This document shows, one piece after another, positions 1,676 to 8,475 of a stretch of DNA of 25,271 nt (its first letter is position 1; each line of letters starts with the position of its first letter). The position numbers and the translations under genes are program-made. The stretch is from Elainellaceae cyanobacterium. Lineage in GTDB: Bacteria > Cyanobacteriota > Cyanobacteriia > CAZCXK01. The DNA is taken from assembly GCA_051162585.1 (NCBI GenBank), contig DBGGTD010000622.1, positions 1 through 25,271 on the forward strand, written 5' to 3'. The notes under the pieces were generated by a model. That model saw nothing but the letters and a program-made list of their open reading frames with translations. It searched no databases and was not told the DNA's origin.

Positions 1676-1834
1676 TTTTTCTGAATCGCAAAACGAAGGT
1701 GCGATAGTATGAGAATAATCAAACGGTTGACGTTGCAATGATTTGAGATCGTGCCTTTCACGAGAGTCAACCGTTAGAACTTTGTTGAAGCGTTTTCCCC
1801 ATCGTTATTGTGCCGCGTCGTTAGGAGTGACATC

Positions 1835-2581
1835 ATGGGATTTTTTGATCGACTCATGCGGGTCATTCGCGCAAATCTAAATAGCCTCGTGGGTCGAGCG
1901 GAAGATCCAGAAAAGATTTTAGAGCAGGCTGTCATTGATATGGAGGAAGACCTGATTCGGCTGCGTCAGTCAGTCGCCCAGGCGATCGCCACCCAAAAGC
2001 GCACAGAACGCCAGTGCAGTCAGGCACAATCGACCTCAGAAGAATGGTATCGACGGGCTCAGCTCGCCCTTCAAAAAGGGGAAGAAACCCTGGCTCGAGA
2101 AGCGTTAGCTCGGCGCAAATCATATCAGGAAACTGCCAATGCTCTGCAAGGGCAACTTGATCAGCAGCGGGGCATCGTTGAGCAGCTTAAGCAAAATATG
2201 GTGGCGCTAGAAAGTAAGCTTTCTGAGGCAAAAACCAAGAAAGACATGTATATTGCTCGCGCCCGTTCCGCTAAAGCTTCGCAGCAGCTTAACGAAATGA
2301 TGGGGGGGGTAGGAACCGGAAATGCGCTAGCAGCGTTTGAGCGCATGGAAGAAAAAGTCAATGAGCTTGAAGCTCGCTCAGAGGCGATCGCCGAACTTGG
2401 CAGTAATGATCTAGAAAAGCAGTTTCAGGCGTTGGAGAGCGGGGGAGATATTGACGACGAGCTGGCAGCGATGCGATCGCAGATGACGGGGCAAGACTCT
2501 GCAAGTTTACCCGCTGGCCGTCAGGATACTGAAGTCGATGCCGAATTAGAAAAGCTCCGCTCTCAGCTCGAAGATGTGTAG
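1835..2581 (+). CDS. pspA: PspA/IM30 (Vipp1) family ESCRT-III-like membrane remodelling protein
   Basis: MGFFDRLMRVIRANLNSLVGRAEDPEKILEQ, AFERMEEKV and DDELAAM are family hallmarks. The ATG at 1835 has AGGAG at 1823-1827 and is preferred over the TTG at 1808. Confidence 0.93.
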   Translation: MGFFDRLMRVIRANLNSLVGRAEDPEKILEQAVIDMEEDLIRLRQSVAQAIATQKRTERQCSQAQSTSEEWYRRAQLALQKGEETLAREALARRKSYQETANALQGQLDQQRGIVEQLKQNMVALESKLSEAKTKKDMYIARARSAKASQQLNEMMGGVGTGNALAAFERMEEKVNELEARSEAIAELGSNDLEKQFQALESGGDIDDELAAMRSQMTGQDSASLPAGRQDTEVDAELEKLRSQLEDV

Positions 2582-2592
2582 CGAATTCGTGG

Positions 2593-3648
2593 TTAAACGA
2601 CTTGCTTTTCTCGTAAGTCTTGCAACTCGGTGGGTGAAACCGCGCCTCTCTCTGTGATGATTGCCGTAATCAAGTTGGCGGGCGTAACGTCAAATACTGG
2701 GTTGTAGCATCGAGCCTCAGGGGGGCACATCCGCTTTTCTCCCACCTGAAAAATCTCAGCCGCATCATGTTCTTCGATGGGAATGTGATTGCCTTCTGAC
2801 AGATCAAAGTCAATCGTCGACAAGGGAGCCGCGACAAAAAACGGAATGTGGTGGGCATTTGCGATGATCGCGATGCTATAGGTACCAATTCGGTTGACGG
2901 TATCGCCATTAATCGCAATCCGGTCGGCTCCGACGACCACGGCATCAACCATCTCCCGCTTCATGCAGTGAGCCACCATATTGTCGGCAATCACCGTAAC
3001 TGGAATTCCTTCTTGCACACATTCCCAGGCCGTTAGCTTCGAGCCTTGAAATCGTGGACGAGTTTCGCCCACATACACTTGCTCAAGCCGCTGAGCTTGC
3101 TGCGCTGAGCGAATGACGCCGAGCGCGGTTCCATACCCCGCCGTTGCCAAGGCCCCCGCATTGTAGTGCGTCAAAATCCTTAGCTTTTGGGGAGAGGAGG
3201 GCAGCACGCTAAGACCATGCTCTCCAATGTCTTGACAAGTTTTGAGCCCTTCAGCGTTCATATCTAGAGCCGTCCTCAAGAGGGTGTGCTTGAGGTGCTC
3301 AGTGGGGCCGATGGTTTGACGAGCCGATTTGAGCATGCGTTCTGTTGCCCAAACTAAATTAACCGTTGACGGGCACGCCGTTTGAAACTGTGCGGCGATC
3401 GCTTCTAGAGTTTGCAGAAACTCCTCCCGATTACTCGTTTTGATATCTCTTGCCCCCAAATACATGCCATAGGCAGCCGCTACTCCAATGGCGGGGGCTC
3501 CGCGCACAATCGTTGATTCGATGGCGCGAATCATATCATCGCAGCGCTTTACGTCTACCAGAGCAAACTCATTGGGGAGTCGGTTTTGATCGATGAGCAG
3601 CACATGGTTGTCATGCCAGACAACAGGATACAGAGACGAAAAAGCCAT
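2593..3648 (-). CDS. mtnA: S-methyl-5-thioribose-1-phosphate isomerase (MtnA/eIF2B-alpha-like) homolog with altered active site
   Basis: [30 protein letters not shown] and FDVTP motifs are present. Start at ATG 3648 ([11 protein letters not shown]). Canonical THCNAG reads THYNAG and RPTAVNL reads CPSTVNL, so isomerase activity is doubtful. The family call is secure but the function is not. Confidence 0.9.
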
Positions 3649-3736
3649 AGGACAAGACACACAAATAGAACAAGGGTGAACACACGCGAGCAAATCTAGT
3701 CATAGATTAACCTCGAATCTTGTCGACAAGCCATGC

Positions 3737-4936
3737 CTAACTGCCAACTGAAGCAGCCGCCTTTTCTCCGATCAGCCGATTCTCAAGGAAGCGATCGCAG
3801 CTAAATGCGGTGATTCGATCGGGTACGCGCTCCGTTGCCACCATCTCTGCCATGTTGTATCCGCTTGCGGGTGATGCCTTAAATCCCCAGGTTCCCCAGC
3901 CACAGGTGATATAGAACTTTTTCAGAGCACTGACGGGCGACATAATCGGTGCGTAGTCGGGAGTCATATCACACATGCCGGCCCACTGCCGTTGGATTTT
4001 AATGGTGTGCAGAATGGGAAAGAGTTCTAAAATATGAGCCGCATAGCTCTCTAAGACATCTAGTGTCGACCGCATCGCATATTGAGGCACGCTATCGACT
4101 GCGCCACCGCACACCAACTCGCCGCGATCGCTCTGGCTAATGTAGATGTGGAGCGTTGAACTCACCACAACATGATGAAGCCAAGGTTTTAGCCCCTGCG
4201 TGACAAATGCCTGCAACGGGTGCGTCACAAGCGGTAACTTAACACCAACGGTTCGGCAGACCTCAGACGTCCATCCTGCTGTTGCCGAGACGAGCGTATC
4301 GCAGTGAATTGTCCCTCGATTTGTCAGAACGCCTGTCACAGTGCCATTCTCAGTCAGAATATCCTCAACCTGAGTCAGTTGGTGAATATGCACGCCATTG
4401 CGGTCAGCGCCTCGTGCAAACCCCCAAACAACAGCGTCGTGGCGGATAATGCCTCCGGGCGGATGATACAGCGCTCCCATGATGGGATAGCGAGGTTTAT
4501 TGGATATATCAATTTCTGGAATCATCGCCTTAATCTCTTGAGGCATCACCATGTAACTGTCAACGCCGAGTGCTTTATTCTGCTCGGCGCGAGTCGTTAG
4601 CGCTGCCATAGATGCGGTGCTGTGCCCAAGGGTAAAGTGCCCCTGTTGGCTAAACATCAAATTGAAGTCTAGTTCTTGTGACAGGGTTTCGTAGAGTTTC
4701 AGGCTTTGGTTATAAAACTGAATGCCTGGCTCCGTACGATAGTTTGAACGAAGAATGGCAGTGTTTCGCCCGGATGCGCCATAGCCGATGTATTTTTGCT
4801 CAAGCACAGCGACGTTTGTGATGCCGTGACGGGTCGCTAAATAATAGGCAGTCGCTAATCCATGGGCGCCACCGCCAATAATGACCACATCGTAGAAAGG
4901 TTTGATGTCGTGGGTTGTCCACATGGGGTCAGGCAT
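3737..4936 (-). CDS. soxB: Sarcosine oxidase subunit beta family FAD-dependent oxidoreductase (SoxB/MgdA-like)
   Basis: YDVVIIGGGAHGLATAYYLA FAD-binding motif, GASGRNT..RSNY, GG..RHDAVVWGFARGAD, THPLQAFVT, CGWGT.GFKA.P and C-terminal GEKAAASV are typical of heterotetrameric sarcosine oxidase beta subunits. The substrate is not established. Confidence 0.85.
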   Translation of the reverse strand: MPDPMWTTHDIKPFYDVVIIGGGAHGLATAYYLATRHGITNVAVLEQKYIGYGASGRNTAILRSNYRTEPGIQFYNQSLKLYETLSQELDFNLMFSQQGHFTLGHSTASMAALTTRAEQNKALGVDSYMVMPQEIKAMIPEIDISNKPRYPIMGALYHPPGGIIRHDAVVWGFARGADRNGVHIHQLTQVEDILTENGTVTGVLTNRGTIHCDTLVSATAGWTSEVCRTVGVKLPLVTHPLQAFVTQGLKPWLHHVVVSSTLHIYISQSDRGELVCGGAVDSVPQYAMRSTLDVLESYAAHILELFPILHTIKIQRQWAGMCDMTPDYAPIMSPVSALKKFYITCGWGTWGFKASPASGYNMAEMVATERVPDRITAFSCDRFLENRLIGEKAAASVGS

Positions 4937-7242: not shown

Positions 7243-8475
7243 ATGGCGCATCGTAGTCATTTGACTTTACAATTGACTTTACAATTTACACGGATGTTTG
7301 TGATTCAACCCTTAGTACTGATTGGCATTATTGCAGGGATCAGTGCTTCCGATCTGGCTGAGGCGCAGACCCTTGAACATTCAAAATCCGCGATCGCCCA
7401 ACGAACGTCTGCCCAACAAACGTCTGATAGAACCCATACCGAAACGCCTGTCGAGATCGTTGCAGAATTGGAACAGGCTCCCGGCAACGTTACGCTTACT
7501 CCTGACGGACGCATTATTTTTAGTCTTCATCAGTTCTACGAGCCAGAATACCGAGTCGTCGAGTTAGGCGATGATAATCAGTTGATTCCGTTTCCAAACC
7601 TAGAATGGGCGGATGGCATCGACGACGCAGGAAAGGGATTAGACGCGGTATTAGGAATTCAGGCTGACCCAACGGGAACTGTCTGGATGCTCGATAATGG
7701 CGGACGGACTGGTAGCACGCCTAAACTGGTCGCCTGGAATAGCGCCACCGATGAACTTGACCGAGTTATAGAGATCCCGCCGCCCGTCACTGAGGCAAAT
7801 TCGTTTGTCAATGACTTGGCCGTTGATCTCACTAATCAAGCGGTTTACATCGCAGATACGGCTCTGGGCGGAACGCCAGCGCTGATTGTAGTAGATTTAA
7901 CCACCAACATGTCTCGGCGGGTGTTGGCCGAACATGTCAGCGTGATGCCTGATGCAGACGTCGACATCATCGTTGAAGGAGAACCTATTCAGAGTCGCCA
8001 GCCTGATGGCAGTTTGGTTCAACCTAGCGTAGGGGTGAACCCCATTGCGCTCGATACCCGTAATGAATGGCTGTATTACGGTCCGATGAGTGGTACTCGT
8101 TTATACCGAATTCGGACTGAGCATTTGCTCAATCCTCAATTAACGGATGCTGAATTGGGCGATCGCGTTGAAGATTATGGCCCCCGTCCCTATTGCGACG
8201 GCATTTCTATTGATGCTGAGAACAATATTTACATCTCTGATCTTCAATCAAGCGTTGTGGGAGTTCTGCGCCCCGATCGCACTTATGAGCCGCTTGCAGC
8301 TGCCCCTTGGATGAATTGGATTGATGCATTCAGCTTTGGTCCAGATGATTATATCTATAGTGTCGTCAACGAGCTTCATCATTCTGCACCGCTAAACGGA
8401 GGGGAAGACACTGCGGAGCCTCCCTTTTATATCTTTCGTCTCACTCCACTGGCGAACGGCGTGGTGGGGCGCTAG
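7243..8475 (+). CDS. Secreted major royal jelly protein (MRJP/Yellow, L-dopachrome tautomerase-related) beta-propeller protein
   Basis: Hydrophobic N-terminal signal-like segment ending AEA-Q. PGNVTLTPDGR, LGIQAD..G.VWMLDNG, PKLVAWN, SFVNDLAVD...YIAD, ALIVVDL and CDGISID match MRJP-family proteins. An alternative start is ATG 7294. Confidence 0.8.
   Translation: MAHRSHLTLQLTLQFTRMFVIQPLVLIGIIAGISASDLAEAQTLEHSKSAIAQRTSAQQTSDRTHTETPVEIVAELEQAPGNVTLTPDGRIIFSLHQFYEPEYRVVELGDDNQLIPFPNLEWADGIDDAGKGLDAVLGIQADPTGTVWMLDNGGRTGSTPKLVAWNSATDELDRVIEIPPPVTEANSFVNDLAVDLTNQAVYIADTALGGTPALIVVDLTTNMSRRVLAEHVSVMPDADVDIIVEGEPIQSRQPDGSLVQPSVGVNPIALDTRNEWLYYGPMSGTRLYRIRTEHLLNPQLTDAELGDRVEDYGPRPYCDGISIDAENNIYISDLQSSVVGVLRPDRTYEPLAAAPWMNWIDAFSFGPDDYIYSVVNELHHSAPLNGGEDTAEPPFYIFRLTPLANGVVGR

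Follow-up and report, generated by a model that had tools for sequence, protein, structure and literature searches.

The DNA analysed in this study, hereafter the window, is a stretch of 25,271 nucleotides (positions 1 to 25,271 of contig DBGGTD010000622.1, GenBank assembly GCA_051162585.1) from a metagenome-assembled genome (MAG) of an Elainellaceae cyanobacterium. It contains a gene of the MtnA family, whose product (P0001) has a tyrosine at the position of the catalytic cysteine and a cysteine at the position of a phosphate-binding arginine. The 351-residue frame without stops and the substituted codons that a first-pass annotation of the window had reported were all found where it had placed them. 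The gene and the residues in question are as follows.

2593..3648, minus strand: coding sequence of the MtnA-family protein P0001 with a remodelled active site; ATG start, 351 amino acid residues; assigned by Pfam and NCBIfam profiles and by fold.
3373..3375, minus strand: Cys92 (TGC) in place of the 1-phosphate-binding Arg (Arg94 of Bacillus subtilis MtnA, Arg65 of Pyrococcus horikoshii ribose-1,5-bisphosphate (R15P) isomerase); by alignment.
3247..3249, minus strand: Gly134 (GGG) in place of a 99%-conserved Asp of the long inter-domain helix; by conservation across canonical sequences.
3163..3165, minus strand: Tyr162 (TAC) at the catalytic-Cys position (Cys160 of B. subtilis, Cys168 of human MRI1); by alignment.
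3067..3069, minus strand: Gly194 (GGC), the change D194G, private to the window MAG and no feature of the Elainellaceae clade; by clade alignment.
2923..2925, minus strand: Asp242 (GAC), the catalytic Asp, kept in the motif GADRIA; by alignment.
2890..2892, minus strand: Arg253 (CGA) in place of the phosphate- and sugar-binding Lys (Lys251 of B. subtilis, Lys215 of P. horikoshii R15P isomerase); by alignment.
2767..2769, minus strand: His294 (CAT) in place of a 99%-conserved Arg (EER to EEH); by conservation across canonical sequences.

The frame of P0001 is free of stops over all 351 residues. A longer frame with a TTG start reaches position 3693, and the N-termini of homologs favour the ATG start. 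P0001 matched Pfam IF-2B (PF01008) with an E-value of 8.8e-84 and scored above the cut-offs of the MtnA equivalog model TIGR00512 (420.9 bits, cut-off 279) and of NF004326 (455.8 bits, cut-off 271). Its scores were below the cut-offs of TIGR00511 for ribose-1,5-bisphosphate isomerase (170 bits, cut-off 314.1) and of the eIF2B-type NCBIfam models NF006210 (65.9 bits, cut-off 339) and NF004994 (63.8 bits, cut-off 249). The AlphaFold2 (AF2) model of P0001 had a predicted local distance difference test score (pLDDT) of 84.5 and the N-terminal helical and Rossmann-like C-terminal domains of the MtnA fold, and Foldseek aligned it to B. subtilis MtnA (2yvk_A) with a template modelling (TM) score of 0.87 and an E-value of 2.2e-36. 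Residues 281 to 320 were modelled with a confidence of 52–76 in the Tyr form vs. 81–90 in the canonical control P0007. This lower confidence, found only in the Tyr form, is a weak, model-based indication of local divergence. A low-pLDDT loop at residues 163–170 was also considered as an effect of Tyr162 and was rejected, because the canonical control dipped likewise and the feature is generic.

Residue positions were taken from an alignment to the solved MtnA structures 1t9k (Thermotoga maritima) and 2yrf (B. subtilis). Relative to these structures, THCNAG is changed to THYNAG, RPTAVNL to CPSTVNL, ANKIGT to VNRIGT, ADETRP to VGETRP and EER to EEH, and a change of AED to AEG is visible against the canonical cyanobacterial consensus. 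Position 162 was Tyr in 7/7 distinct sequences of the Elainellaceae clade and Cys in 135/135 canonical cyanobacterial sequences; position 92 was Cys throughout the clade and Arg in 135/135. Eight ligand-binding and catalytic positions (Arg49, Gly50, Arg92, Cys162, Gln201, Asp242, Asn252, and Lys253) were mapped by spacing and motifs, with roles taken from the papers on P. horikoshii R15P isomerase and human MRI1. In the P. horikoshii enzyme, the 1-phosphate is held by Arg22, Arg65, Gln166, Lys215 and the backbone of Gly23, the sugar is touched by Asp204, Asn214 and Lys215, and C135S is inactive (PMC5789824). The C168S and D248A forms of human MRI1 are inactive as well (PMC2758758). Five of the eight positions were kept in the clade and three were changed. 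Asp242, equivalent to the catalytic Asp240 of B. subtilis and Asp248 of human MRI1, was found in all clade members, as were Gln201 and Arg49; Asn252 was found in 6/7 sequences, P0004 carrying N252S. The catalytic Cys is replaced by Tyr162, and the 1-phosphate tetrad Arg/Arg/Gln/Lys is incomplete, with Arg49 and Gln201 kept, Arg92 replaced by Cys and Lys253 by Arg. The NAGALAT loop that follows residue 162 was unaltered.

The substitutions listed by the first-pass annotation are thus present, except that the Gly of VGETRP belongs to the window MAG alone. Both D194G, in the ADETRP motif, and W183Q (3100–3102) were private to the window copy and absent from same-genus genomes with 92–95% identity; Asp194 and Trp183 were kept by all other clade members. 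These two changes could be further strain drift or a consensus artefact of the MAG, which is 62% complete.

Compared with bacterial MtnA of B. subtilis (2YRF/2YVK) and T. maritima (1T9K), P0001 was 42–45% identical with TM scores of 0.83–0.88. It shares with them a pass of TIGR00512, the catalytic Asp, Arg49/Gly50, Gln201, Asn252 and the NAGALAT loop, and differs from them by Cys to Tyr, phosphate-binding Arg to Cys, Lys to Arg, by the fixed Gly134 and His294 and by some ten changes in the second shell. Human MRI1 (MRDI) and the archaeal R15P isomerases (PH0208 and that of Thermococcus kodakarensis) possess the same canonical Cys/Asp pair and Arg/Arg/Gln/Lys tetrad (PMC2758758, PMC5789824). 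A Cys-to-Ser change inactivates those enzymes, whereas Cys to Tyr is naturally fixed in Elainellaceae. The identities between P0001 and canonical cyanobacterial MtnA, such as P0010 of Oculatella sp. LEGE 06141, P0007 and those of Phormidesmis and Leptolyngbya, were 65–71%. Similar to the variant, the canonical genes are single-copy, and they occur with the same complement of mtnP and mtnA only (G025 and G026 were checked). Different from the variant, they have the usual residues at all five key sites, namely Cys, Arg, Lys, Asp and Arg, in 135/135 or 99% of sequences.

The changes extend beyond the ligand-binding residues. Among 176 positions with at least 95% conservation in the 135 canonical cyanobacterial sequences, 133 were untouched in the clade and 15 differed in every clade member. 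The latter are I33V, M46T/N/S, T91A/V, R92C, T94S/L, A95T, F99V/I/T, D134G, C162Y, A193V, L200F, T221A, A251V/I, K253R and R294H. A distance of at most three residues from one of the eight ligand-binding and catalytic positions was found for nine of these 15, vs. 30 of the 161 conserved positions that are unchanged (Fisher one-sided p = 0.001), the measure being one of sequence neighbourhood that stands in for three-dimensional distance. As judged from the alignment, the fixed changes are a targeted remodelling concentrated around the active site.

The Elainellaceae sample consisted of four species genomes plus three additional sequences from metagenomes. The orthologs sought on the suggestion of the first-pass annotation were found in this sample: the changes were shared by seven distinct sequences from independent assemblies, which were 72–95% identical and had intact frames in all cases. 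The nearest database relatives, P0002 to P0005 (90–72% identity), carried the key changes, and all those at 71% identity or less were canonical. The other three Elainellaceae species genomes all had Tyr; two were of the same genus (92–95% identical) and one of another genus (73%). In the readable loci of other cyanobacterial families, Cys was found in 20/20. Maximum-likelihood analysis of 66 sequences placed the seven Tyr sequences in one clade with 100% support in the Shimodaira–Hasegawa-like approximate likelihood ratio test (SH-aLRT); this clade was nested inside cyanobacterial MtnA, and its stem measured 0.31 substitutions per site. Thus, the active-site rebuild arose once, in the ancestor of Elainellaceae. 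Our literature search found no paper that describes this MtnA variant.

Motif scans, limited to exact matches of the [10 protein letters not shown] context, were also carried out. The back-translated motif [10 protein letters not shown] was found in only three contigs among 185,579 species genomes, two labelled Elainellaceae and the third a contig of the family genome G003. The scan for [10 protein letters not shown] in 241 million metagenome records yielded two further contigs, L047 (Hydrogenedentes-like) and L048 (Acidobacteriaceae-like), whose proteins were about 46% identical to P0001. In these unrelated MtnA genes (L047:125-1180, plus strand; L048:2186-3250, minus strand), Cys is changed to Tyr and the equivalents of the other four key residues, Arg/Lys/Asp/Arg, are intact. 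Their relatives at 95–99% identity had Cys in 119/119 and 120/120, respectively, without the accompanying changes. The Tyr residues of L047 and L048 are likely errors or rare loss-of-function alleles, and the Elainellaceae case differs in kind from these private singletons.

The ratio of non-synonymous to synonymous substitution rates (omega, dN/dS), estimated with the GY+F3X4 codon model, was 0.069 for the seven clade sequences vs. 0.070 for seven canonical ones, and pairwise dN/dS within the clade ranged from 0.045 to 0.10. The new codons varied synonymously: TGC/TGT for Cys92, GGG/GGA/GGT for Gly134, TAC/TAT for Tyr162 and CGA/CGC/CGG for Arg253. The variant is under the same purifying selection as ordinary cyanobacterial MtnA, and the pseudogene hallmarks of frame disruption, relaxed omega and strain-private changes were absent from the Tyr-clade gene. 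The first-pass annotation had also favoured selection over decay, which these values, the clade-wide distribution and the synonymous variation at the new residues bear out. Its own argument, that Lys to Arg requires two substitutions, fails: AAR to AGR is one non-synonymous step, followed by synonymous change.

Several other cyanobacteria lack a functional mtnA. The complete genomes G005, G031, G024 and G033 contained MtnP and no MtnA. The 73%-complete G036 likewise had MtnP and no MtnA match, and G006 and G032 had neither. In G015 (G015:C23:74149-75195), a cyanobacterial mtnA lies in three frame pieces with an internal TAG and is apparently a genuine pseudogene. Absence or breakage of MtnA in several cyanobacteria indicates that loss of the isomerase is tolerated in the class. 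Given that a useless copy would then be expected to vanish, the long-term conservation of the Tyr form is evidence for a selected function.

The neighbouring genes of mtnA in the window are as follows.

1808..2581, plus strand: vipp1 (PspA/IM30), convergent with mtnA; marker of positional orthology.
3737..4936, minus strand: soxB-like flavin adenine dinucleotide (FAD) oxidoreductase of the DAO family, co-oriented with mtnA and 88 nt upstream of it.

The search for a second, canonical mtnA was negative, as exactly one PF01008 gene was present in each of three family genomes that are 99–100% complete; the single PF01008 match in the 62%-complete host MAG of the window adds little weight. A paralog alongside a canonical copy was rejected on these counts. 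The vipp1 gene adjoined mtnA in all clade loci and in the canonical relatives P0007 and P0010. In two of the three clade sublineages, a gene of 471–476 codons and then DciA follow beyond vipp1. Similarly, the locus of canonical P0007, which is 70% identical, reads mtnA, vipp1, a gene for 490 residues and DciA, and that of Oculatella P0010 reads mtnA and vipp1. This shared locus shows that the gene was changed in place, and horizontal transfer was rejected on the same ground and on its nesting inside cyanobacterial MtnA. The Elainellaceae gene is thus the positional ortholog and the only copy of mtnA. The vipp1 and mtnA stops are 11 nt apart, tail-to-tail, and this pair is conserved across Elainellaceae and neighbouring families; it is probable that the two transcripts overlap at their 3′ ends.

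The upstream side was more variable. The first-pass annotation correctly placed the end of a soxB-like gene 88 nt upstream of mtnA on the same strand. The soxB-like protein scored 468.5 bits with TIGR01373, which is below the cut-off of 529, and a scan of the 88-nt gap for promoters and terminators revealed nothing above background. The gene was upstream of mtnA in the loci L006, L007, L044 and L051 and not in L002, L004 and L049. By sublineage, the soxB-like gene with the 88-nt gap was found in this genus and P0002, a divergent sodium:solute symporter gene in the P0003 lineage and a gene for a coiled-coil protein in the P0004 lineage. The link to methylamine and C1 metabolism that had been drawn from this neighbour does not hold, as other neighbours take its place elsewhere in the clade. 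In contrast to the clade loci, those of P0007 and P0010 have dxs, encoding 1-deoxy-D-xylulose 5-phosphate (DXP) synthase, upstream of mtnA: in the nearest canonical relatives, dxs was directly upstream of mtnA and co-oriented with it (L052:1491-4559 and L053:1268-4565). It was gone from this position in all three Tyr-clade sublineages. Because methylthioribulose-1-phosphate derived from 5′-methylthioadenosine (MTA) feeds DXP in the MTA-isoprenoid shunt of Rhodospirillum rubrum (PMC6302742), the dxs–mtnA adjacency in canonical relatives might be functional. Elsewhere in the window, positions 7243-8475 (plus strand) encode a 410-residue protein of the Major Royal Jelly Protein/yellow family (PF03022, 2.4e-21), which is uncommon in cyanobacteria.

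MtnP was found in each of the three complete Elainellaceae genomes and, across the cyanobacteria sampled, in 38 of 41 genomes. Neither MtnB, MtnD (acireductone dioxygenase, ARD) nor enolase-phosphatase was found above cut-off in the family or in the two canonical relatives G025 and G026. Many cyanobacteria own only mtnP and mtnA, and the fate of the products is not understood (PMC8102628). Retention of MtnP was considered as a sign of a working isomerase and was rejected, because MtnP also occurs in cyanobacteria without MtnA. A class II aldolase/adducin-family protein (NF004855, about 450 bits; L042:1096-1857, L040:1090-1911 and L041:1093-1869) was present in Tyr-clade genomes and one canonical relative and not in another. 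It could be the aldolase for 5-deoxy- or methylthio-ribulose-1-phosphate in cyanobacteria with mtnP and mtnA only. As evidence for a downstream step of the Tyr form, this protein of the PRK06208 subfamily was rejected, because its gene is unlinked to mtnA.

The first-pass annotation had concluded that P0001 is not a working methionine-salvage isomerase. The canonical Cys/Asp mechanism cannot operate in the Elainellaceae protein, given that human MRI1 and P. horikoshii R15P isomerase are both inactivated by no more than Cys to Ser, and this part of the conclusion stands; methionine salvage was a misnomer, as the enzymes sought downstream of MtnA were not found. The automatic annotation of the Elainellaceae genes as S-methyl-5-thioribose-1-phosphate isomerase is probably wrong or incomplete. 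Taken as a whole, the observation of the first-pass annotation is confirmed and its interpretation partly supported.

The best reading, to which we assign a probability of about 50%, is that the protein of Elainellaceae remains an active enzyme on pentose phosphates and uses an alternative acid/base center. In the ancestor of Elainellaceae, C162Y, R92C, K253R, D134G and R294H were fixed together with about ten second-shell changes. With the NAGALAT loop, Arg49/Gly50, Gln201 and Asp242 intact and Asn252 present in 6/7 sequences, the protein would still bind an MtnP-type product, a 5-methylthio- or 5-deoxy-pentose phosphate. The hydroxyl of Tyr162, possibly aided by Arg253 or the thiol of Cys92, would then work with Asp242 in place of the Cys thiolate. 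The outcome would be an isomerase with an alternative general base or one with altered substrate or product specificity, and the gene would be neither decaying nor that of a soxB-linked sensor. A catalytic role is more probable than a non-catalytic one, because the buried Asp is invariant together with most residues that contact the sugar or the phosphate, and because Tyr and Cys, both newly acquired and present throughout the clade, are capable of acid/base chemistry. Moreover, a large-to-small change (Arg to Cys) and a small-to-large change (Cys to Tyr), both facing the C1/phosphate end, suggest compensated repacking. A Tyr hydroxyl beside a cationic residue can be a general acid/base on a sugar hydroxyl and Ser cannot, so that the inactive Cys-to-Ser mutants are compatible with an active Tyr form. 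The RpiB ribose-5-phosphate isomerases, in which the base is Cys in Escherichia coli and Glu from another position in Mycobacterium tuberculosis, are a precedent for replacing or relocating a Cys general base with activity kept; their fold is unrelated, and activity of the Elainellaceae protein is proposed here from its residues.

Several points weigh against an active enzyme. Given the Cys-to-Ser results in human MRI1 and archaeal R15P isomerase, an inactive isomerase is what would be expected by default. One of the two phosphate-binding Arg residues is lost, and the side chain of Tyr, much larger than that of Cys, could block the site. No conserved operon partner that would indicate a pathway was found in the clade loci, and purifying selection fits a non-catalytic role equally. 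In a more specific and tentative version of the catalytic reading, which we consider unlikely, the catalytic residue itself would have migrated: the thiol would have moved from position 162 to 92 by R92C, with Tyr162 filling the space of the arginine, to give a new Tyr/Cys/Asp architecture in the MtnA fold. Such a protein would either use another acid/base chemistry to isomerise 5-deoxy- or 5-methylthio-pentose phosphates or yield another product.

The loss of an essential Cys, whose change to Ser is inactivating in homologs, together with strong purifying selection, would also fit a non-catalytic binder that senses or sequesters a pentose phosphate and acts via protein–protein contacts like eIF2B subunits or MRI1. 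Sugar-phosphate sensing by eIF2B-alpha (PMC8187479, PMC4787765) is a precedent for this possibility, as is the catalysis-independent function of human MRI1 (PMC2758758), and the lower AF2 confidence at residues 281 to 320 compared with the canonical control hints at a diverged surface region. Similar to the variant, eIF2B alpha/beta/delta and archaeal aIF2B, which are non-catalytic and bind sugar phosphates or eIF2, have the PF01008 fold and have lost the catalytic Cys. They differ from it, however, in forming multi-subunit complexes and in having lost most catalytic residues (PMC4787765), whereas Asp242, Gln201 and Arg49 are invariant here, Asn252 is nearly so, and the eIF2B-type models score only 64–66 bits against cut-offs of 249–339. 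The eIF2B-like sensor analogy of the first-pass annotation is weak for these reasons. The gene is, furthermore, a sole copy and not a duplicate, its only conserved neighbour is the convergent vipp1 that also lies beside canonical mtnA, and simple binding would not need strict conservation of two newly gained reactive residues. Such a binder is thus rather improbable, if worth keeping in mind. Changes at the C1-phosphate end (R92C, K253R, T91A, T94S/L, A95T, M46T/N/S by Arg49 and L200F by Gln201), a long stem branch that fits a burst of change and the loss of the upstream dxs of canonical relatives in all three sublineages would fit an enzyme for another reaction, substrate or product, e.g., an unphosphorylated or differently substituted 5-deoxy sugar, outside MtnP-linked salvage. 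MtnA of Methanocaldococcus jannaschii reportedly accepts unphosphorylated 5-deoxyribose (cited in PMC8102628). Nevertheless, the motif of the 5-substituent pocket is unchanged, as are Arg49, Gly50 and Gln201 among the five phosphate contacts, charge is kept by Lys to Arg, and no new enzyme neighbour is conserved clade-wide, which makes neofunctionalisation of this kind unlikely.

A decaying gene, a strain-private mutation or an assembly error is very improbable. TGY to TAY needs one transition only, private Tyr singletons exist among Cys-bearing neighbours in L047 and L048, and the window copy has the additional private changes W183Q and D194G at conserved positions. Yet the whole set of changes is common to the seven distinct sequences, and all copies are in frame, unlike the truly broken mtnA of G015 with its TAG and frame changes. 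Sequencing or assembly error was rejected because the changes recur in seven independent assemblies, and strain-private decay was rejected for the clade because of the omega of 0.069 and the synonymous variation at the new codons.

A Cys/Asp pair is the hallmark of MtnA-family isomerases, and here an entire family, made up of filamentous cyanobacteria, keeps a Cys-to-Tyr form as its sole copy under normal constraint. Either the chemistry of the MtnA family allows more than had been assumed and its general base can be Tyr or a relocated Cys, a flexibility that would bear on the unresolved mechanism by which aldose-1-phosphate is isomerised to ketose-1-phosphate, or a bacterial housekeeping enzyme became something else without duplication. 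If the catalytic residue has migrated, the Elainellaceae protein would be a natural experiment able to settle the question of proton transfer vs. hydride shift in this enzyme family. The variant also bears on the gap left by the cyanobacteria that possess only mtnP and mtnA (PMC8102628).

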